From Escherichia phage TR1: DNA of 44,099 nucleotides. Made by a program: the position numbers and the translations under genes. Location: sequence record OP087522.1, one strand, 5' to 3'. The notes beneath the pieces were generated by a model. It saw only the letters and a list, made by a program, of their open reading frames with translations. It made no database searches and was not told where the DNA came from. This document shows, piece after piece, positions 4,807-42,997 of this stretch (position 1 is the first letter of the stretch; each line of letters begins with the position of its first letter).

Positions 4807-5159
4807 TGACTACTACCATAACTAAAAATTTCATTAGCAAAGACAACCAACTGTTTAAAGCTCGCGTTAAAGATGGTGTCGAGCAAATCAAGAAAGATGG
4901 CAAATGGGTTAATCTGGAAGAACGTGGTAAATACATTAAGACCAGAACGCTTTACGTGACACATGTTAACCACAAATCTGGCGTTAAGAAGGATTTCAAA
5001 GAAGGAAAGAGATACCAGGTGCTAATGCATAGCGGGATGGGTCAGTCTGCTGGTTACATTTACGACGAAGATGGTAATGCATGGCAGCTATATCGAAGCG
5101 AAGATGTTGGTTTCTACACTCTTTGCCAGACTTACCTATTTGAATCATCTTACAAATAG
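4806..5159 (+). CDS. hypothetical protein (117 aa)
   Basis: ORF track; ATGA overlap with upstream gene. Confidence 0.5.
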   Translation: MTTTITKNFISKDNQLFKARVKDGVEQIKKDGKWVNLEERGKYIKTRTLYVTHVNHKSGVKKDFKEGKRYQVLMHSGMGQSAGYIYDEDGNAWQLYRSEDVGFYTLCQTYLFESSYK

Positions 5160-5232
5160 CAGCACGAATTGATAATGCATTATAAGCGGCTGTTGATATA
5201 ATGGCCGCTCAGAAACAATACGGAGAGAAGTA

Positions 5233-6816
5233 ATGTTTGATTTCAACGAAGATAAACTATCTGTTGAACAAGTTATGGCGATTGCCGCGACCGACAACCT
5301 CCCACCGCTTCGCGTGGCCATTAATGCAAATGGCTATCGGCAGTCTCAATCATTCTGGAAAACACCTGTGGAGATTGACGCAGGTAATGACAAGTACCCT
5401 GTAATATCTCTAGGCAATGACATTGATGTTGTTGGTAAGCTCTCGGCAAATATTGCTCGCTCAGTTCAGTTCCCAGAGTCATCAGCATACATGCACTTTT
5501 TGGGTTGTGTGTCCGCTGCGATGCTAGGGCGCTTTACTGTTGAGTATCACGGAACCCAGCAGCCAACATCGCTTTACGTGGTAACTAGCCAGCCGCCATC
5601 TACTGGTAAGTCAGCCATTAACTCTCTGTCAATTGCGCCAATGATTGCTGAGACTGAGCGTTTGAACGAGGTGCGTAAACGTGACCGCAAAAAGATTATG
5701 GCTAAGCTGTCTGCGCTAGCAAAAGAAATGAAACAGGAGAAGTCACCATCTGAGATGGCTTCACTGTTTGAGGAGAAGGAAGATTTAGAGGAAAAGCTCG
5801 AGAAGCTGTGCGATATCGTATTCCCGGTCTCAGATACTACGCCAGAAGGTCTTGCACGAATCAACAACCGCCAGGGTAACTTTGCGGTCATCTCGGATGA
5901 GGCAACAAGCGTCAACTCATTATTGGGCATGACATACGGTGATGGTTCCAAGAAAACGAACAGCGAGCTTGTACTTAAAGCGTGGGATGCTGGTAACGTA
6001 TCTATTGCCCGCGCTAACGCAGAAAACAACATGAGTTTCGTGGCAATGGGGTGCATCTCTGTAATTGCTCAGGATGAAACAATCAATGCGATTATGAATG
6101 CTGGTGCGCGTGGTATTGGTGTTTCCGAGCGTTTCCTTCTGGTGCGTGAAAAGTCATTTCTTGGAGACCGCGTGTTTGTTGATGAGAATGGCGATTCAAC
6201 ATACGAGGCTATTGATGGTGGTCTTAAGGCAGGCTATTTCCGTCTCGTTCATGAAATTATGAATGAAGTTGAAGTGAAACTGACAGTAAGTGCGTCATCC
6301 ATGCGCTACCTTAACCGAGCTCGCCAGGAAATGGAACCGCATCTTGGTGATGGCGGTAAATATTCCCACACGATGTTACGTGGTGCTCTTGGTAAATTTG
6401 ATAAGCAAGCAATCCGTATTGCCTCAGTATTGCACGTTATTCGCAACTGGTTCGCACCGGCAGGGTCGAGTCCGCAGAAATCAAGAGAGATTGAGCTTGA
6501 AACAATGCAAGAAGCGGTTATGATTTTCCACGAGTTAAGCAAGACTTATTTGTCGTCCGCTAGTGCTGCTGGTCATGCTGGTGATAATGCTGAAATGAAT
6601 AAGCTGGTTGATATCCTGATTAAGCAAGGTAAGAATGGGAAGGGTGTTGTTGGCGTTCGCTCACTGTATGAAGCAGCACGCAAAGTTAAACCTTTTGAAG
6701 GACAGGCTGGCGTAATGACTCGCATCAAGGACCACTTGGTTCCTATGCTTGATGAGAAAAACTATACATGCCTGATTGGTGATAAGATTTACATTAATCC
6801 GCGATTGTTGGGGTGA
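5233..6816 (+). CDS. large early protein with P-loop-like motif (VTSQPPSTGKS); function unknown, possibly replication-associated NTPase
   Basis: ORF track 527 aa; GGAGAGAAG RBS; motif read from translation; family assignment not verifiable without a search. Confidence 0.6.
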   Translation: MFDFNEDKLSVEQVMAIAATDNLPPLRVAINANGYRQSQSFWKTPVEIDAGNDKYPVISLGNDIDVVGKLSANIARSVQFPESSAYMHFLGCVSAAMLGRFTVEYHGTQQPTSLYVVTSQPPSTGKSAINSLSIAPMIAETERLNEVRKRDRKKIMAKLSALAKEMKQEKSPSEMASLFEEKEDLEEKLEKLCDIVFPVSDTTPEGLARINNRQGNFAVISDEATSVNSLLGMTYGDGSKKTNSELVLKAWDAGNVSIARANAENNMSFVAMGCISVIAQDETINAIMNAGARGIGVSERFLLVREKSFLGDRVFVDENGDSTYEAIDGGLKAGYFRLVHEIMNEVEVKLTVSASSMRYLNRARQEMEPHLGDGGKYSHTMLRGALGKFDKQAIRIASVLHVIRNWFAPAGSSPQKSREIELETMQEAVMIFHELSKTYLSSASAAGHAGDNAEMNKLVDILIKQGKNGKGVVGVRSLYEAARKVKPFEGQAGVMTRIKDHLVPMLDEKNYTCLIGDKIYINPRLLG

Positions 6817-7186: not shown

Positions 7187-7553
7187 TCCTGAATATTACC
7201 AAAAGCAGAATGATGATGATGCACAACATAATTCCACTTCCAACCCACGGGATTGCAGAAGAATCATTGTTTGTGATTTCAATCTTCTCAGCTGTGATTG
7301 TTGACGCTTTGATTGAGTTATCAGAAGTCTTCTTACCGCTTGAGCTATCAAGAGTGTCAACATTAGAGTTCTTCAACTCAGCCTTTGCATTGGAACTTGA
7401 ATCAACCTTGTTTGTCAGACCTACGCCAACCTTATTGTTCTCCGCTCCAGCCTGGGCGCTAATCTCTGGCTTACTGCCAATCAATCCGGTCAGTGCTGAT
7501 GTTGCCGAACAACCAGAAAGCAGAATCACCGCAGCAATTAATACAACCTTCAT
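7167..7553 (-). CDS. unimolecular spanin (lipoprotein signal plus C-terminal TM anchor)
   Basis: N-terminal signal with lipobox LLSGC and C-terminal hydrophobic helix IMLCIIIILLLVIF in one 128-aa protein; sits last in the lysis cassette, as in T1-type phages. Confidence 0.65.
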   Translation of the reverse strand: MKVVLIAAVILLSGCSATSALTGLIGSKPEISAQAGAENNKVGVGLTNKVDSSSNAKAELKNSNVDTLDSSSGKKTSDNSIKASTITAEKIEITNNDSSAIPWVGSGIMLCIIIILLLVIFRKNKKAP

Positions 7554-8035
7554 TTACCAACCCCACTTAAGCATAATTTTATTTCCTCGTTGCGCCTGTT
7601 CACGAGCCCCTTGACGACAACCTTCTTACCATTCTTGGTTATCTTGTTCCACATCCCGAGAGCCTTGCAACCCTCCTCAATCTTACCTTGGTTAATAAAC
7701 CTTACTGCCGTGGACTTCCTCATTGCAGAGCCGCCAACGTTATAACTAAAACTGATTAATGCCGCTCTTGTTTCTGGAGAGATAGGGTATGTCACCGCAT
7801 CCTGAACATACTTCCCATGAATCTGAATGTGCTTCTCAAGCAGATTCCGGCACTCCCTGTTACTGTACCTCTTACCCCATACAACATCAGGGCCAGTAAT
7901 GCCAGCACAGACCGTAGGGATTCCTGCAATGTCCATGTAAGGCTTGTACTCAACGCCCTCTACAAGCTCAATAATCGGCGCTGCGATGTATATTGCCGCT
8001 GCCGTCGCTGCACTAATTACCAGCTTCTGCTTCAT
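7550..8035 (-). CDS. endolysin, T4-lysozyme-like muramidase with N-terminal SAR-type signal-anchor
   Basis: Weakly hydrophobic Ala/Gly-rich N-terminal segment (LVISAATAAAIYIAAPII) followed by E-x10-D-x5-T catalytic spacing (ELVEG...YMDIAGIPTVCAG). Confidence 0.65.
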   Translation of the reverse strand: MKQKLVISAATAAAIYIAAPIIELVEGVEYKPYMDIAGIPTVCAGITGPDVVWGKRYSNRECRNLLEKHIQIHGKYVQDAVTYPISPETRAALISFSYNVGGSAMRKSTAVRFINQGKIEEGCKALGMWNKITKNGKKVVVKGLVNRRNEEIKLCLSGVGK

Positions 8036-8250: not shown

Positions 8251-8378
8251 GTGATCACCTTTAAATCCTAATTTGTCAATAGATAGTGTAAATATAATAC
8301 AGTAGGCAAGTGTGGATTGTAAGCACAAAAAAGGGGAGCCAAAAGGCCCCCCGCTTGCAAATCTATGTTTTTGATGTG

Positions 8379-8552
8379 TTAATCTGCGATAATAAATTCC
8401 ACCAAAGAGCCATCAATCGGCGCAAGGATGTGAGTCATATCGTCGCCATAAATCTTGTAGTAACCGCTACCAAGATGCTCGCCGCTGTATGGCTGATTCT
8501 CAGTAAACGGAAGCGTCTTTGAGTTGTTTTTCACGCAGTATAGTTTAGTCAT
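8379..8552 (-). CDS. hypothetical small protein (about 57 aa) heading the lysis operon
   Basis: Manual translation (MTKLYCVKNNSKTLPFTENQ...); AGAGGA RBS; promoter cassette upstream. Confidence 0.35.
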   Translation of the reverse strand: MTKLYCVKNNSKTLPFTENQPYSGEHLGSGYYKIYGDDMTHILAPIDGSLVEFIIAD

Positions 8553-8583
8553 TTTTGAATCCTCTGTTGTTTTCGATTTGGTG

Positions 8584-8626
8584 ATTATACCTAATTGCTG
8601 TGGCGATTGTTTAGCGATTCGTGCTA
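8584..8626 (-). promoter_or_regulatory. promoter cassette copy: palindrome TAGCG-ATTCG-TGCTA (8612-8626), 22-bp spacer, -10 TATAAT (8584-8589)
   Basis: Measured spacing; palindrome overlaps stop of dNMP kinase gene. Confidence 0.55.
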
Positions 8627-9165
8627 TTTATTGCATCAATCACTTTTTCTGTAGTTATTTTAATATCACCTTCAATAACATCAATATCAATTTCCCTTGC
8701 GCAGAGGCCGCTAATGTATGACCTACTATCTCCTTCGAAAGTGTAACCAGGTCTATGAAGCCTAACCAATGTAACCTCAACACCACTTTCAATTAGTGGC
8801 TCAATTTCACTTGCAAATCCACCATCTGAACAGATGTGGCAACCATTGCCAAGAGACTGAGCTAGCCTTTTACCGAAAACTTCATCACCAAAAACTGGCT
8901 TCATCACTGATTCGCTAATCCAAATCATAAATTGACGAACAGTCATTCCACCAAGAAATTCATGTGGTGATTCTTTGTACTCTCGATCATCGTAATTCTT
9001 AATAAATCCATCAAACTCATCGCTTGATAGCATGCTCTTAGCCACATTAAACATAGGCGATTTGAAAGAAACCTTATCCTTGCAAATTCCAAGTTTAACA
9101 ATGATATCTGCAACTGTATCTTTTCCAGCACCTGGGGGTCCATTAAGGATGATTAACTTTTTCAT
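8611..9165 (-). CDS. deoxynucleoside monophosphate kinase (T4 gp1-like P-loop kinase)
   Basis: LIILNGPPGAGKDTVADII P-loop and VTLVRLHRPG block resemble T4 dNMP kinase as recalled from memory. Confidence 0.6.
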   Translation of the reverse strand: MKKLIILNGPPGAGKDTVADIIVKLGICKDKVSFKSPMFNVAKSMLSSDEFDGFIKNYDDREYKESPHEFLGGMTVRQFMIWISESVMKPVFGDEVFGKRLAQSLGNGCHICSDGGFASEIEPLIESGVEVTLVRLHRPGYTFEGDSRSYISGLCAREIDIDVIEGDIKITTEKVIDAINSTNR

Positions 9166-9214
9166 TTTATTTACTCAATTTTAATGGGGCCATTTAAAAC
9201 CCCATTGATTTTAT

Positions 9215-9763
9215 TTATTTAGAATTCAGATTTTCTACACCATGAGATTTAAGGCCGCTGTGAACATTATAACCATAATCACAAACCTGATAAGTGGTTA
9301 TCCCTAGAGACCTAAAGTGATTTATTACATTCGGGCTATCATCCCAGGCCGCCGTAATTCTTTCAATCCCAATTGAATTTAAGAATTCCTCTTTAATTAT
9401 CGTATCCTTCCTGTTGTCCGAAGCTGATCGCATTACCATTACGTTGTATTTGCATCCATTTTTAGTAAGCCAATCAAGTGACTCATCTAGAACATGATCA
9501 GACCTTCCTGTTAAAATGATTATGTATGCGCCGCTATCATAAAGCGAATTCATTACGCTTATCGTATCATTAAATGGAGAATCAAATCTGCTTAGTGAGT
9601 TAAATTCAATCCACGACTCGGTAAGGTGAGGGTCAGTTTTTGGGATCTTATCAAGTCTGTGAGCCCCGTCAGAAAGCGTTCCGTCATAATCAAAAATATA
9701 AACTGGCTTACCTTTGAAGTCATTGTTAATTGATTTTTTTATCATTGAATATAGTTGTTTCAT
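9215..9763 (-). CDS. HAD-superfamily phosphatase (putative nucleotidase)
   Basis: HAD motif I FDYDGTLSD, motif II TGR, C-terminal WDD acidic motif. Confidence 0.6.
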   Translation of the reverse strand: MKQLYSMIKKSINNDFKGKPVYIFDYDGTLSDGAHRLDKIPKTDPHLTESWIEFNSLSRFDSPFNDTISVMNSLYDSGAYIIILTGRSDHVLDESLDWLTKNGCKYNVMVMRSASDNRKDTIIKEEFLNSIGIERITAAWDDSPNVINHFRSLGITTYQVCDYGYNVHSGLKSHGVENLNSK

Positions 9764-9793
9764 TTTTGTTTACCATCTCGTTTGTGTTTGATT

Positions 9794-9836
9794 AATATAC
9801 CCAGATTTCTCTGGGATTTATTAACAAAAAGTGCTA
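9794..9836 (-). promoter_or_regulatory. promoter cassette copy: palindrome TAACA-AAAAG-TGCTA (9822-9836), 22-bp spacer with hairpin, -10 TATATT (9794-9799)
   Basis: Measured in sequence. Confidence 0.5.
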
Positions 9837-9840
9837 TTTA

Positions 9841-10980
9841 TTACATTCCAGGTCGATAGATATGACGACCAACCTCGCCAAACTCTTTGTGATAAACAAT
9901 CGCGGCAGCCTGACGATATGAGCGCCACCCCCCTCGTGCTGCATACGCATCCTTGCTTGCTAGTGCTGGATGTACTTCGTCAATACCAAGAGTGCACTCT
10001 GTTACTGTTGCGTGGTGAAAATGCCCGGAATGGCAATAAACGAACTCGCATTCACCAAAGTCTTTCCTGTAATCAGTTGCCATAGCTGCAAGTCTACCTT
10101 CCGCTTTCTTCATTGTGTGACCATGAGTGTAGCCAAGTAGTGTTGAGCCAAATCTTGTCTTGTGCATAATCGCAGGGCTTACATCAACAAAGACACGACT
10201 CTCATTTTCATAAAATGCAGCCATCGCAGCCCGAAGCCAGATCATGCCGCTTTGGTCATGATTTCCCTCGATAATTTGAATGTCAACACTTTTATGCTTT
10301 TTAAGCATCTTTTCTACAGCGCCACGAATTGATCTAATTGCGATGTAGACTAACTTAGCGTAACGGCTATCTTGGTCAAGGCAGTGGCCACTAGCTGGAG
10401 TTACCGCCTCAAGGCCATCTGAGTGGAGATAATCACCACCAACAAGGATGACTGCCTTTTCTGAAGCTGGCGAAACTGATATTGCATGGTCAAAGTATGA
10501 GCCCATTAGTTTTTCTGCCGTTGCCGTGTCATAATTTTCACCAGACTCGTGGCGATGGGCCATCATTCCAATATGTATGTCGAAAATTGGATACAGTGTC
10601 ATTAGGTCAGGGTTTGTATCTTTGCCTGAATGCTTAACTTCCTCACACTTTGGCAACTCAGAACAGAAAGCCTCTCGCGCTTGCTCGAGCATAATTTCAA
10701 GGCGTTCATTATCAACGCTCGTCTTAACCCAGCGCAGCTTCTCATTCCCATCCGCATCAATCATGGTTGAAGTACCCTTGACTAAATAGCCGTCCGGCAC
10801 TAACTTCTTGATACCATCATTGCCATGCCCAAACAAACCACTCTTAGCTAACTTACTGCGACGAAGTTCAACGTTGCGAATGTTCATGTCGTACTTCTCC
10901 GCAATCGCCTTGTTAGTCATGCCGTTTTTAAGTTCTTCGATTAGCTGATCGTTGGTAATCTTTGCTACTGTCATTTTCAA
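9841..10980 (-). CDS. calcineurin-like metallophosphoesterase with N-terminal HTH domain
   Basis: N-terminal about 60 aa helix-turn-helix-like (NKAIAEKYDMNIRNVELRRSKLAKSG) fused to GDYLH / GNHD / GHFH phosphoesterase motifs. Confidence 0.6.
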   Translation of the reverse strand: MKMTVAKITNDQLIEELKNGMTNKAIAEKYDMNIRNVELRRSKLAKSGLFGHGNDGIKKLVPDGYLVKGTSTMIDADGNEKLRWVKTSVDNERLEIMLEQAREAFCSELPKCEEVKHSGKDTNPDLMTLYPIFDIHIGMMAHRHESGENYDTATAEKLMGSYFDHAISVSPASEKAVILVGGDYLHSDGLEAVTPASGHCLDQDSRYAKLVYIAIRSIRGAVEKMLKKHKSVDIQIIEGNHDQSGMIWLRAAMAAFYENESRVFVDVSPAIMHKTRFGSTLLGYTHGHTMKKAEGRLAAMATDYRKDFGECEFVYCHSGHFHHATVTECTLGIDEVHPALASKDAYAARGGWRSYRQAAAIVYHKEFGEVGRHIYRPGM

Positions 10981-11055
10981 ATCCTTAGTTCATCACGATA
11001 AAATATAAGATAGTAAAGCTAAACAGTGGTACTAATACTACTAGGGCGGCGTACT

Positions 11056-11307
11056 TCATACAACCTCCTTCAGCCAGTAATCAATTAAATTCGCACTAAT
11101 TGCTAATTTCTCGTCCAGGTCAGTCATGCAGAGATTGCCGCACGCTGGCGAGTAATAAATCTGAACCCACTTTCCATCCTTCGTCTTCGCATTAACATCC
11201 GCATAGTCAGGAGGAAACCAATCAGCAATAGGTATCGCCCTAAACTTAGCACCACTACTCCCACGCACCAAATCATAATGCTCAGGCTGAAAATCTAATC
11301 CAAACAT
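11056..11307 (-). CDS. hypothetical protein (83 aa)
   Basis: ORF track. Confidence 0.45.
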   Translation of the reverse strand: MFGLDFQPEHYDLVRGSSGAKFRAIPIADWFPPDYADVNAKTKDGKWVQIYYSPACGNLCMTDLDEKLAISANLIDYWLKEVV

Positions 11308-16628: not shown

Positions 16629-16693
16629 TGCCTTAAAGATGCTACAATCCAAATTAGCAATTAGTGCTATTTTACAAATGGAGACTTTACACA

Positions 16694-40112: not shown

Positions 40113-41403
40113 TTACAATCTCCTCTTTTGGTGATTCTTCTTGTGCGGGCTGCTCAGTTACAATCGAACCTTCACCAATCTTAACCTCAGGGGCTAATGC
40201 GCGCAAGGTATCTCGTGCTTCATCTGCGTCCATTACTCCGTTAGTGATGAGAGTGGCGATTGAATCAACGTTATTCTTCAGTATTTCAGCGCGGTCCTTC
40301 TTCGATTCCTGAGCTAGCGGATTAAACTCAACTGACCATTCCTGCTCGGTTGTGATGAACGGGATTAAAAAACCAAGAACAGGGAGTAATTCTTCATTTC
40401 TCTTGCGGTCGATTAGTTTATGGAATGTCTCCAGTGCTGTGTTTTGGCTTGATGATACACCGCCAACGTTACGGCCTTTGAGGATGATTTCATGAATACC
40501 GCTCAGGGCAACAATCCTGTCGAATTTCTTATCCAGGAATCCATCAATCCCGCCAATATCTGAATTAAGAACGCTGTACTCTTCAGACTCTGCATCGATA
40601 CCAATTGCACGACCAACGCCGGAATTATCATCAACCTGAGCCAGCCTTAACCTTGCCGCGCCAAAACCTTCTGCGTCGTCACACAATTCAGCAAGCCCCT
40701 TCGCCTTCCATACCGCCTGTTGCTTACGGCGCAATAACTGGGTTGCCAGTTTCTCGCACGTCTGATAATCCTTGATTGCCTCCAGTAGGTCAGGAACCAG
40801 AACGCTAGCACCCCACCCATCATTGCCGAGACGCAATGAGCTAGGAATCTTCTCTCCATCCATAATGTGAACTCGAGAGTAATGCACATCATAAAACGTG
40901 GAGCTACCTTCAGGTGTTATGCGGTACGTTAGTGGTTTTCCAAATCGAACATTGCGAGGATTCTCCTCCTTCGCTTGCACCCTCACCTGACTGCGATCGT
41001 ATACTCGAAGCGATTCAAGTTCAGCACCTTCACGTACCGGACTAGTTAGCGCACGATTATCCTTAACGATAGCCACAATAGCTGAGCCGCCGAACAACCT
41101 CGCCCATGACCATGCGTCAGAGATTGACTCGTTGACCTTTAGGTAATCCCACCTTGACCAGAATTCACCCTCGTTATCAATGCCATCAATATGGAAACCT
41201 GCGGCGATTGCTGTCTCTGGGATGGTATCGACGATGCGGCGAACCAGTGAGTTAGACACGTAAAGTGAATCGGCGAATGGTGGCGCAAGGTAAGTGTTGC
41301 CGAATTGCCCGTAAATCTCGCTACCATCACTAGTTCCACCCAGGAACTGCGTGGCGTATGAATCTGCTTTTACCATTTTCTTGCTCCAATAAAAAAGCCC
41401 CAT
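40102..41403 (-). CDS. portal protein
   Basis: 433 aa immediately downstream of terminase large subunit. Confidence 0.65.
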   Translation of the reverse strand: MGLFYWSKKMVKADSYATQFLGGTSDGSEIYGQFGNTYLAPPFADSLYVSNSLVRRIVDTIPETAIAAGFHIDGIDNEGEFWSRWDYLKVNESISDAWSWARLFGGSAIVAIVKDNRALTSPVREGAELESLRVYDRSQVRVQAKEENPRNVRFGKPLTYRITPEGSSTFYDVHYSRVHIMDGEKIPSSLRLGNDGWGASVLVPDLLEAIKDYQTCEKLATQLLRRKQQAVWKAKGLAELCDDAEGFGAARLRLAQVDDNSGVGRAIGIDAESEEYSVLNSDIGGIDGFLDKKFDRIVALSGIHEIILKGRNVGGVSSSQNTALETFHKLIDRKRNEELLPVLGFLIPFITTEQEWSVEFNPLAQESKKDRAEILKNNVDSIATLITNGVMDADEARDTLRALAPEVKIGEGSIVTEQPAQEESPKEEIVIES

Positions 41404-41425
41404 TTAAGAGGCTAGTTTATCACGC

Positions 41426-42997
41426 TTATTTAATTCCTGCTAATCGCATCATTCTCGCTTTAGGGTCTTCTGCGATGTTCAGTACCAGGTTGACAGCCAT
41501 CGTCAAACAGTCTATCTGGTCATCGTGCGAGTGAGAATCATCTGCCGTAAATGCTGCAATCTCTGTTAGCAATCCGTTAAGCCAATTTGCTGACTCAGGC
41601 AGGATAACGTTGCCAGCCTTAATCTGAGGAAGTGCACTCATTACGCGAGTCAGCTTGTCGTTATCTGGCACGTATGGCTCGATAGGCGTTCGCATAACCC
41701 TTCCTGCTGATTGAATCAGACCTATACCAGATGCTTTCTTCTCTATGATGATTTTACGAAGGATACCATCTGTCTGATTGGATGCCCTTGCCATCCTCTC
41801 GAAGTCTAATAGCTCTGCCTCTAGCTCTGGCGCCTCCCATTTACCACGTCGCTGGTCTAACAGGTAAATCTTGCCATCCTTATAGCCCCAGAGTTGCAGT
41901 ACACTAAAGTCACTGTAGCTTTTAGTGGTCATCGCGGTATCAAGCGTCATGAACCTGTAATCGTACTTAGCTGGCGGTCGCAGGGTGTCACTAATGCGCT
42001 GGAGCCAGTCTACGTTAATCAGGTTGCCACCTAGAGCTACAGGCTCCTGAGCATATTGACTAAGGAATGTGTAAGGATCAGCATCACGCATGGCTATCAA
42101 GTCTTCTATTGATTCCTTTGCTGGGAAGTAGCTGTAATACTTAACCCCATCGCGCTCTACAAATGGCGAAGAAAGAACGTCATCTATAAACTGCTGCCTA
42201 ATCCATTCAGGAAGCGTGTCGGCGTATTCTTCCGTGACTATTGCTGGAATTTTAACTACGTCGAATTTTATCCCCATCTGCCCTGACTCCATGAAGTGAC
42301 TAGTGTCAAGAACATGAAGCCTTTGCTGAACGGCTAATATTGGAGTCTCTTTTCCCTTAACTGAACTCGCCCTTCGTGAGCGAATTGTGTTCTTGAGAAG
42401 CATATTAACAGCCTCCCTCCTTACATTACTAAGCGCATCATCTGGCTTCAGCGGGTCATCAAGCATTATGCATCCACTGTAATCATCGGTCATGTAACCA
42501 CCACGCGAACCAGTCACCTGTCCAGCCATTGCCTTAGATATCGATTCAAACCTCACCTTTCCATCTTCATCTAGAACCTGAATCTCATCATCCCTGCAAG
42601 TCCCAAATGAGCAAGGCCAAAGTTCCTGAAACTCCTTTGACTTAATCAGGTCGCGCACACGCTTTGAGTTACGCTTAACCAATGAGTCAGAGAACGACAA
42701 ACTAAGATTTCTAACCTTCTTAATCTTGATCATGCTATATACAGGGAAATGTATACTAAAGAGCTCGGTTTTGGCTGATCCAGGAGCTACGTTTATGATG
42801 GTATCCTTTCTCTTACCATCAAGAATCTCATCTATGACACGACAAAGGTATTTAGCATGCCAATTCATTTTGAATCTCTCGCCTTGCGTTATCTGAAAGA
42901 AGCACCGCAAGAACCCTTCGAAACTATGCTCAGAGATTGCCTTTATAGCCATCTTTTCAGCGTGAGTCAGTTCATCCCAGACTATTAATTCACTCAT
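41426..42997 (-). CDS. terminase large subunit
   Basis: ATPase region (INVAPGSAKTE) and C-terminal acidic nuclease-like motif (TADDSHSHDDQIDCLTMA); 523 aa. Confidence 0.75.
   Translation of the reverse strand: MSELIVWDELTHAEKMAIKAISEHSFEGFLRCFFQITQGERFKMNWHAKYLCRVIDEILDGKRKDTIINVAPGSAKTELFSIHFPVYSMIKIKKVRNLSLSFSDSLVKRNSKRVRDLIKSKEFQELWPCSFGTCRDDEIQVLDEDGKVRFESISKAMAGQVTGSRGGYMTDDYSGCIMLDDPLKPDDALSNVRREAVNMLLKNTIRSRRASSVKGKETPILAVQQRLHVLDTSHFMESGQMGIKFDVVKIPAIVTEEYADTLPEWIRQQFIDDVLSSPFVERDGVKYYSYFPAKESIEDLIAMRDADPYTFLSQYAQEPVALGGNLINVDWLQRISDTLRPPAKYDYRFMTLDTAMTTKSYSDFSVLQLWGYKDGKIYLLDQRRGKWEAPELEAELLDFERMARASNQTDGILRKIIIEKKASGIGLIQSAGRVMRTPIEPYVPDNDKLTRVMSALPQIKAGNVILPESANWLNGLLTEIAAFTADDSHSHDDQIDCLTMAVNLVLNIAEDPKARMMRLAGIK

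Follow-up and report, generated by a model that had tools for sequence, protein, structure and literature searches.

In phage T4, the Rad50/Mre11-like proteins gp46 and gp47 help turn host DNA into 5′-deoxynucleoside monophosphates (dNMPs), which are recycled by the dNMP kinase gp1. In phage T5, the protein A1, a predicted metallophosphatase resembling double-strand break repair and proofreading nucleases, is both required for the degradation of host DNA and sufficient for it, and two further proteins are a predicted DNA-binding protein (A2) and a characterized 5′-dNMP phosphatase encoded in the pre-early operon (Dmp) (bioRxiv 10.64898/2026.04.02.716235). The phages T1 and TLS also degrade the host genome and reuse the nucleotides, although the responsible early gene could not be pinpointed by the authors of that work (PMC11447400). 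T5 disposes of nucleotides, whereas T1 reuses them. Here, we analyzed three adjacent minus-strand genes in a 44,099-nucleotide sequence of Escherichia phage TR1 (OP087522.1), which is referred to in its full length as the window. The genes encode a helix-turn-helix (HTH) metallophosphoesterase (MPE), a HAD-family phosphatase, and a P-loop kinase. Under the reading that we tentatively favor, the three proteins may form a nuclease-phosphatase-kinase pipeline that feeds host-derived nucleotides to phage replication.

The window represents a T1-like coliphage of the Drexlerviridae, and its region 8400 to 11100 shares 99.7% identity with Escherichia phages TR2, TR3, and Rao1 (lineage: Drexlerviridae; Braunvirinae; Christensenvirus). 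The open reading frames (ORFs) of the trio are located at 8611 to 9165, 9215 to 9763, and 9841 to 10980, as placed in the initial annotation, and the peptide motifs quoted there were all found: LIILNGPPGAGKDTVADII in the kinase; FDYDGTLSD, TGR, and WDD in the HAD protein; and GDYLH, GNHD, and GHFH in the MPE protein. The genes and domains are as follows.

9841 to 10974, minus strand: HTH-MPE gene (ORF called at 9841 to 10980, 379 amino acids [aa], to a TTG at 10980)
10843 to 10953, minus strand: HTH domain of three helices, residues ~10 to 46, LuxR/GerE/sigma-70-region-4-like, from an AlphaFold2 model and family profile matches
9844 to 10614, minus strand: metallophosphoesterase catalytic domain, residues ~123 to 379, from alignment, profile, and structure comparison
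9215 to 9763, minus strand: HAD phosphatase gene, 182 aa
8611 to 9165, minus strand: kinase gene, 184 aa

Because each protein has hundreds to thousands of homologs and the region is nearly identical to deposited phage genomes, the trio consists of real genes rather than chance ORFs. The MPE gene likely starts at the ATG at 10974 and not at the TTG at 10980, since a Shine-Dalgarno sequence (AAGGA) is located 7 nt upstream of the ATG and both the deposited TR2 coding sequence and the 376-aa homologs agree with this start.

Orthologs of the MPE, HAD, and kinase proteins are present in the T1 record (AY216660) as CPTT1_064 (“exonuclease,” 64% identical), CPTT1_014 (“polynucleotide kinase,” 54%), and CPTT1_016 (“deoxynucleotide kinase,” 43%); they are composed of the same domains as the window proteins, with annotated HHpred matches of 99% to E. 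coli SbcD, T4 Pnkp (5UJ0), and T4 Dnk. The TLS orthologs are named Gp09, Gp14, and gp66, and the TLS paper names a polynucleotide kinase, a dNMP kinase, and a “proof-reading exonuclease” (PMC11447400). Across the Drexlerviridae, an exonuclease-holin-endolysin-spanin arrangement is persistent in 508 of 522 genomes; the commonest genes right after the exonuclease, when an SH3 gene is absent, encode a polynucleotide kinase and a dNMP kinase, and the kinases were hypothesized to be an add-on to the replication module that boosts nucleotide supply (PMC13164509). The annotations of the trio, its arrangement, and the nucleotide-supply idea are therefore already known. A literature search for escape mutants or a function of the MPE gene in Drexlerviridae found nothing. 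The window differs from T1 in that the trio is contiguous and is followed by an SH3 gene, whereas in T1 the MPE gene is located apart and an HNH gene splits the HAD gene from the kinase gene.

The MPE protein belongs to phrog_704, “DNA repair exonuclease” (2e-147). An exhaustive search found 4,647 clusters of the family at 50% identity (E ≤ 1e-3; 1,061 clusters at ≤1e-30), and a tblastn census placed it in 2,015 phage records. Members are mostly 370 to 420 aa long and share a conserved core from about residue 60 to the end. In the AlphaFold2 model (predicted local distance difference test [pLDDT] score of 90.0), the HTH helices (residues 10 to 18, 23 to 29, and 34 to 46) are followed by a beta-hairpin (65 to 89), a helix (91 to 106), and the MPE domain (123 to 379). 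Family members match Sigma70_r4_2 (1.5e-9), GerE (2.4e-8), HTH_8, HTH_23, and other HTH families, and the family profile weakly matches FixJ, VraR, NarL, and GerE. The presence of both an HTH and a complete metallophosphoesterase in one chain, as initially proposed, is therefore upheld. The fusion had also been described as unusual, but it is the standard architecture of the family, since the HTH is found family-wide across these clusters and phage records.

All five metallophosphoesterase metal-binding motifs (DxH, GD, GNH(D/E), H, and GHxH) are intact, and the protein has the binuclear, calcineurin-like fold. Residues D134, H136, G182, D183, N240, H241, H286, G319, and H322 are invariant in 45 diverse homologs, as are T194 and D202 within the family-specific segment VTPxSGHxLDxDxRY, and H320 is conserved in at least 90%. 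The full sequence, compared to the PDB by sequence alone, yielded only a weak match to the HTH of FixJ. The best PDB sequence match of the MPE-domain profile was Thermotoga maritima Mre11/SbcD (TmMre11), at a weak E-value of 0.016; the alignment covers DxHlG..W and GD(F/L)LH and includes the histidine three residues past the motif II aspartate. This motif II is of the Mre11/SbcD type in the family as a whole (consensus lGDflH.D), with H186 conserved in at least 90% of homologs and aligned to GDLLH of TmMre11. Foldseek ranked TmMre11 first (E = 7e-8), closely followed by Rv0805, PolD DP1, Vps29, and GpdQ, and the TM-scores were low throughout. The nearest structures of the MPE fold are the DNA nucleases PolD DP1, SbcD, and Mre11.

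Taking fold and domain composition together, the MPE protein is most probably a DNA nuclease that engages DNA through its own HTH. The Pseudomonas putida MPE nuclease (6nvo) and SbcD, which are Mn-dependent DNA nucleases, belong to the same binuclear superfamily, with weak profile matches and significant structural ones. Both are cellular repair-operon proteins that have Lhr/ligase or SbcC partners, respectively; unlike the MPE protein of the window, neither carries an HTH, and the sequence likeness is limited to the metal-binding motifs. No Rad50/SbcC-like ATPase partner was found in the TR2 stretch, in the complete T1 record, or beside the MPE gene in the other loci examined.

It is improbable, in our estimation, that the HTH-MPE is something other than a DNA nuclease, namely, a small-molecule or protein phosphoesterase (e.g., a phosphatase like lambda-PPase or a cyclic-nucleotide phosphodiesterase that counters host signaling immunity) or a protein that regulates transcription of the late genes habitually found after it. 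The phosphodiesterases Rv0805 and GpdQ have Foldseek E-values similar to that of Mre11, the HTH is sigma-70-region-4/LuxR-like, and, in several lineages, lysis or terminase genes directly follow the MPE gene. Its place before the late genes recalls the position of the lambda NinI phosphatase and late activators. The intact Mre11/SbcD-type motif II and the nucleases among the nearest structures argue for nuclease activity.

The HAD protein is a Pnkp-type DxDxT phosphatase, which bears out the HAD-family phosphatase call of the initial annotation. It matches Pfam HAD_PNKP at 1.4e-16 (61 bits versus a cut-off of 27.6), and its matches in the PDB are Pnkp1 (4xrp, 1.2e-5) and T4 Pnkp. A 26-sequence profile aligns to residues 156 to 297 of T4 Pnkp (hhalign, 97.5% probability, E = 8e-12). 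Residues D25, D27, T85, K124, and D142 are invariant in the 26 homologs and correspond to D165, D167, S211, K258, and D278 of T4 Pnkp, where D165 is the nucleophile, D167 the acid-base, and D278 the Mg2+ residue, with S211 and K258 also being catalytic (PMC3592404). The DxDxT fold, the catalytic residues, and a D-x-RKD-x-x-x-K-E-E signature are features in common with T4 Pnkp/PseT and Pnkp1. Unlike T4 Pnkp, the protein is a stand-alone, single-domain one that lacks a fused N-terminal polynucleotide 5′-kinase domain, and the neighboring kinase is from a different (gp1) family, although deposited annotations name the HAD protein “polynucleotide kinase.” The protein also shares phrog_415 with T5 Dmp (3.5e-59 versus 3.6e-57). 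The pairwise match to Dmp is weaker (hhalign, 73.8%, E = 2.9e-5; BLASTP, E = 0.019), and the window protein is nearer to T4 Pnkp than to Dmp. Family membership therefore leaves the choice between a 3′-end phosphatase and a nucleotidase undecided.

The kinase is a P-loop protein of nucleoside monophosphate (NMP) kinase fold in the PHROG of T4 gp1, with predicted dNMP kinase activity, and its initial assignment as T4-gp1-like holds at the level of the family. It matches phrog_139, “dNMP kinase,” at 2.2e-44 and T4 gp1 matches the same profile at 1.8e-65, over profile positions 82 to 256 and 83 to 261, respectively. The AlphaFold2 model (pLDDT, 90.5) has a generic NMP-kinase fold. An alignment of 27 homologs shows an invariant P-loop GxxGxGKDT, which is GPPGAGKDT in the window (G14, K15, D16, and T17 invariant), and conserved DGGF..E and R.H..G..F..DSR motifs. 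Foldseek returned adenylate, shikimate, and phosphomevalonate kinases, including archaeal adenylate kinases at E of ~1e-4, and the best TM-scores (0.58/0.62) were to animal phosphomevalonate kinase; the T4 gp1 structure 1DEK was not among the top 50 matches. Pfam yielded only subthreshold P-loop matches, and searches of the PDB with the single sequence and the profile matched at the P-loop only. The kinase profile likewise aligned to the T4 Pnkp kinase domain at the P-loop only (hhalign), as did hhalign and hmmsearch comparisons to T4 gp1, which covered 30 to 37 residues there. Neither comparison therefore decides the substrate, and because the direct profile comparisons reach only the P-loop, the term gp1-like rests on the PHROG profile and on the HHpred match (99%) of the T1 ortholog, 43% identical, to T4 Dnk. 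The kinase family has members in 1,445 phage records, and its genes often adjoin dUTPase or DNA ligase genes in unrelated virulent phages.

Many kinase homologs end in a conserved acidic tail, EW(E/D)DD-IPW, which the window kinase lacks. The C-terminal tip of bacterial SSB, DDDIPF, is similar to this tail. By analogy, the tail could be a docking peptide.

A split end-healing set is a further alternative to the pipeline, and we regard it as very unlikely. Under this explanation, the HAD 3′-phosphatase and the P-loop kinase would be the two halves of a Pnkp, and the MPE would be a 2′,3′-cyclic phosphodiesterase or 3′-end cleaner, as in Clostridium thermocellum Pnkp (CthPnkp), with tRNA or DNA cut by host defense nucleases as the repaired substrate. 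The closest characterized relative of the HAD protein is indeed the 3′-phosphatase domain of T4 Pnkp, in keeping with the deposited name, and CthPnkp joins a P-loop kinase to an MPE phosphoesterase (PMC2190708). The P. putida MPE nuclease leaves mixed 3′-PO4 and 3′-OH ends (PMC7826289), so a 3′-phosphatase would be called for. On the other side, the kinase belongs with the gp1-type dNMP kinases, its match to the Pnkp kinase domain is confined to the P-loop, the annotations of T1 and of the TR2 stretch examined include no ligase gene, and the MPE fold is closest to DNA exonucleases. The MPE protein also bears a DNA-binding HTH, and its gene is usually found without the HAD and kinase genes.

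For the pipeline, the following order of events would apply. Upstream of the trio, the same strand carries genes for a helicase and a VRR-NUC-type nuclease together with five small ORFs, and the trio is at the tail end of the early DNA-metabolism operon (helicase, resolvase, small ORFs, and then the trio) in a phage without its own DNA polymerase. The MPE would act as a DNA nuclease of the Mre11/SbcD/PolD-DP1 structural class that depends on divalent metal and is kept on DNA by its HTH rather than by Rad50/SbcC. The HAD protein, as a stand-alone Pnkp-type aspartyl-phosphatase, would remove phosphate monoesters from DNA ends, oligonucleotides, or nucleotides, with 3′-phosphates being the most likely substrate. 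The kinase would convert dNMPs to deoxynucleoside diphosphates, and host Ndk would convert these to deoxynucleoside triphosphates. Together, these steps would supply phage DNA synthesis, driven by the host polymerase, with precursors made from DNA, most plausibly that of the host chromosome. The families and folds, the intact catalytic residues, the operon position, and the repeated occurrence of the ordered trio in unrelated phages are shown by the analysis; the nuclease activity, the substrates of the enzymes, the host chromosome as target, and a common pathway are inferred.

To assess the association of the three genes, about 40 loci and three tblastn censuses (MPE, kinase, and HAD), taken separately, were analyzed. 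The order MPE-HAD-kinase recurs in Klebsiella Webervirus, where the coding regions overlap, and in the unclassified Yersinia myovirus vB_YenM_22, whose three proteins are 36 to 39% identical to those of the window. A kinase-family or phosphomevalonate kinase-like gene neighbors the MPE gene in three further loci. Of 29 bacterial-genome loci, 2 have a kinase-like gene nearby.

Two side observations concern the neighborhoods of distant MPE genes. On a Borborobacter arsenicus scaffold, a second, different metallophosphoesterase gene (7197 to 7904; phrog_1649, 1e-50) directly follows the HTH-MPE gene, and a kinase-family gene is located ~3 kb downstream. A distant metagenomic phage contig (MPE 39% identical) carries, on the strand opposite to the MPE gene and ~2 kb upstream of it, a thymidylate synthase gene; a gp1-like kinase gene of the P-mevalo_kinase family is 1.1 kb downstream (features at 5160 to 5993 and 10265 to 10924). 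This arrangement again ties the MPE gene to nucleotide-metabolism genes.

Several observations weigh against the pipeline. The T1 MPE gene (40822 to 41955) closes a helicase-resolvase-Dam operon, and the HAD-HNH-kinase genes are elsewhere (4948 to 6534). No HAD or kinase gene was found in the ~7 kb flanking the MPE gene in Jerseyvirus AG11, Dhillonvirus SECphi4, Jedunavirus KpV52, or Rhodobacter phage RcAqua (Casjensviridae). Among the 29 MPE loci in bacterial genomes, a HAD gene was found within 6 kb in none, and 27 had neither a HAD nor a kinase gene in that range. Several of these loci are prophages, since they are located inside complete chromosomes or very large scaffolds, and, to our knowledge, destruction of host DNA is not generally known for temperate phages. 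The position of the MPE gene at the early/late boundary fits a role on phage DNA equally well. The Foldseek scores of the non-nuclease MPEs (Rv0805, Vps29, and GpdQ) are near those of Mre11, and the alignments of the kinase to T4 gp1 stop at the P-loop. If the HAD protein were Dmp-like, a dNMP phosphatase and a dNMP kinase would oppose each other in one operon. Lastly, there are other candidate degraders of host DNA, namely, the RecE-type exonuclease of the T1 record, the VRR-NUC/RecU-like resolvase, and HNH endonucleases.

The boundary position is the most constant property of the MPE gene, which is typically next to lysis or terminase genes in unrelated phages and prophages, the Yersinia myovirus vB_YenM_22 among them. 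The gene is located just before the holin gene in Drexlerviridae; in SECphi4, it lies between the lysin gene and terS, and in RcAqua, it follows the endolysin gene. In four prophages, the large terminase gene is 0.5 to 3 kb downstream, and in another, an endolysin gene is downstream. Helicase or primase genes are upstream of the MPE gene in some other loci. It is quite possible, although short of probable, that the trio consists of two juxtaposed units, with the HTH-MPE as a persistent core nuclease that acts on phage DNA and the HAD-kinase pair as a separate, mobile, DR-bounded unit for the nucleotide pool that happened to insert beside it in this lineage. The nuclease would then, for example, trim the ends, hairpins, or branches of replication or recombination intermediates before packaging, which we consider possible to the same degree. 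The separation of the genes in T1, the MPE genes that lack HAD or kinase neighbors in four other phage lineages and 27/29 bacterial loci, and the nearby terminase, helicase, and primase genes all favor two units. So do the counts in Salmonella phage records (373 for MPE versus 43 for the kinase and 44 for HAD) and the Drexlerviridae survey, in which the exonuclease-to-spanin arrangement is persistent and the kinases are variable occupants of the gap (PMC13164509). Against two units, the unrelated Yersinia myovirus keeps the identical order at 36 to 39% identity, and Webervirus has overlapping coding regions; such conservation is unusual without functional coupling. In addition, there is no SbcC/Rad50-like partner, and RecE/Erf/SSB and the resolvase already serve recombination.

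The initial annotation described the trio as a module for nucleotide salvage and host DNA degradation. This description is reasonable, and a role in nucleotide supply was proposed independently (PMC13164509), but the trio is not an obligatory module: the MPE gene is apart from the HAD-kinase pair in T1 and has no HAD gene within 6 kb in many phages or in any of the 29 bacterial loci.

The promoter signals around the HAD and kinase genes also bear on the two-unit explanation. A repeated cassette in the window consists of the direct repeat (DR) ATAGCACnnnTTGnTAAA, a −10 hexamer at a fixed distance of 38 nt start to start, an A/C-rich, CATCGAAACGAA-like leader, a Shine-Dalgarno sequence, and a start codon. 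The DR motif AAATAGCAC, seen in two intergenic regions, is the 21-nt direct repeat aaATAGCACnnnTTGnTAAAA described for phage TLS (PMC11447400). With ≤3 mismatches allowed, the window contains 14 DR copies versus 2.4 expected, a count that none of 100 shuffles reached. A TATAAT-like hexamer follows at the fixed distance in 13 of the 14 copies; the exception is the copy at 16652, which lacks a −10 and is antisense to an annotated primase gene. The copies and the signals around the trio are as follows.

DR copies on the minus strand: 1117, 2034, 8609, 9819, 12159, 14650, 16652, 20892, 30772, 34712, and 43560
DR copies on the plus strand: 3756, 4566, and 23002
9794 to 9837, minus strand: DR cassette preceding the HAD gene (DR, 9837 to 9819; −10 TATATT, 9799 to 9794)
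8584 to 8627, minus strand: DR cassette within the 3′ end of the kinase gene, serving the SH3 gene (DR, 8627 to 8609; −10 TATAAT, 8589 to 8584)
9183 to 9206, minus strand: 7-bp hairpin AATGGGG...CCCCATT in the gap between the HAD and kinase genes, read directly from the sequence

The claim that each gene has its own promoter cassette applies only in part. The HAD gene has a full cassette, and the MPE gene is preceded by a −10-like TATATT and a cassette-like leader and Shine-Dalgarno sequence without a DR. For the kinase gene, the gap between the HAD and kinase genes contains the hairpin and no promoter cassette. A sigma-70 consensus scan found no site upstream of the MPE or HAD gene and, at the HAD-kinase junction, nothing better than a weak 9/12 match. 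In the DR cassette, TTGnTA and the −10 are separated by 22 nt, which exceeds the spacing of a canonical sigma-70 −35/−10 pair, so the scan is blind to it. These features suggest that the DR cassettes are a phage-specific promoter class, which may need a DR-binding factor. DR copies are also present in T1 and TR2, and relaxed copies are present in Webervirus. The T1 copies occupy equivalent places, with one directly before the HAD gene and one at the stop codon of the kinase gene. The HAD-kinase pair therefore has the appearance of a single DR-bounded unit, and its bracketing at the same relative positions in T1 and the window is a further point in favor of two juxtaposed units.

The DR was also considered as a binding site for the HTH-MPE, and this idea found no support: the exact DR occurs only in the T1 and TR2 loci, and a search of the non-Drexlerviridae loci without mismatches found no match. 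At the junction of the HAD and kinase genes, T1 carries an HNH homing endonuclease gene (5465 to 5959), and the window has a 49-nt gap with the hairpin. A perfect palindrome, CCCAGA-GAAA-TCTGGG (9800 to 9815), lies in the HAD cassette, with the DR on one side and the −10 on the other, shortly past the MPE stop codon. It may weakly terminate or attenuate the MPE transcript, or it may serve as an operator in the promoter.

Downstream of the trio, a 57-aa ORF and a terminator precede a holin-lysozyme-spanin cassette.

8379 to 8552, minus strand: stand-alone SH3 protein (DUF7244), 57 aa, part of the lysis module and not of the trio (Pfam PF23896 at 7.9e-27)
8333 to 8352: terminator 3′ of the SH3 gene

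The SH3 protein is 43% identical to T1 CPTT1_066. The kinases and the SH3 gene occur together in only seven instances among the 522 Drexlerviridae surveyed (PMC13164509), and the window, which carries both, therefore has one of these rare combined arrangements.

With respect to T4, the locus is similar in combining an Mre11-class nuclease and a phrog_139 kinase. It is different in that an HTH is fused in place of the Rad50/SbcC-like ATPase partner, hydroxymethyl-dCMP chemistry is absent, and the genes are adjacent rather than dispersed. With respect to T5, the likeness is an MPE-class protein, a DNA-binding function, and a phrog_415 HAD phosphatase in one operon. A1 and the window MPE have the same structural class of nearest neighbors, and the HAD protein is the only one that shares a PHROG with a T5 pre-early protein. 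A1 differs in length (556 aa), in having SNHD in place of GNHD, and in being largely confined to Demerecviridae. The initial annotation had likened the combination to T5-type phages, where a metallophosphoesterase-like protein works with a DNA-binding partner. This picture of T5 agrees with the functions given for A1, A2, and Dmp in the 2026 preprint; as a statement of homology, the comparison fails, in that no significant similarity to A1 or A2 was found and the link to T5 is an analogy of structural class.

The HTH-MPE was compared directly to A1 and A2. As a fused A2-A1, it was rejected, with BLASTP E-values of 0.25 against A1 and, for the HTH region, 0.6 against A2. Homology to A1 was rejected as well: hhalign gave 13.7% over 19 columns around GNHD/SNHD and hmmsearch gave E = 0.066. 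The PHROGs are also distinct (phrog_1745 for A1 and phrog_1725 for A2 versus phrog_704 for the MPE).

The trio itself is ordinary, in that its genes are annotated in near-identical genomes and both its arrangement and the nucleotide-supply reading have been published. A bolder proposal, which we consider rather doubtful at present, is that the HTH-MPE would be the nuclease behind host-chromosome destruction in T1-type infections, a single-chain functional counterpart of T5 A1 plus A2. If so, MPE-HAD-kinase would be a portable “degrade, trim, re-phosphorylate” cassette that moved between Drexlerviridae and the Yersinia myovirus. The HTH-MPE, which is present in 508/522 Drexlerviridae and ~2,000 phage records, is an obvious candidate for the host DNA degrader of T1 and TLS, and its candidacy is strengthened because T5 A1, of the same structural class, suffices for host DNA destruction. 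Classical T1 mutants defective in host DNA degradation are described as transducing at a higher frequency (Roberts and Drexler 1981, as cited in PMC11447400). The role of the MPE would therefore matter for transduction, and it would be just as relevant to the assessment of T1-like therapeutic phages.

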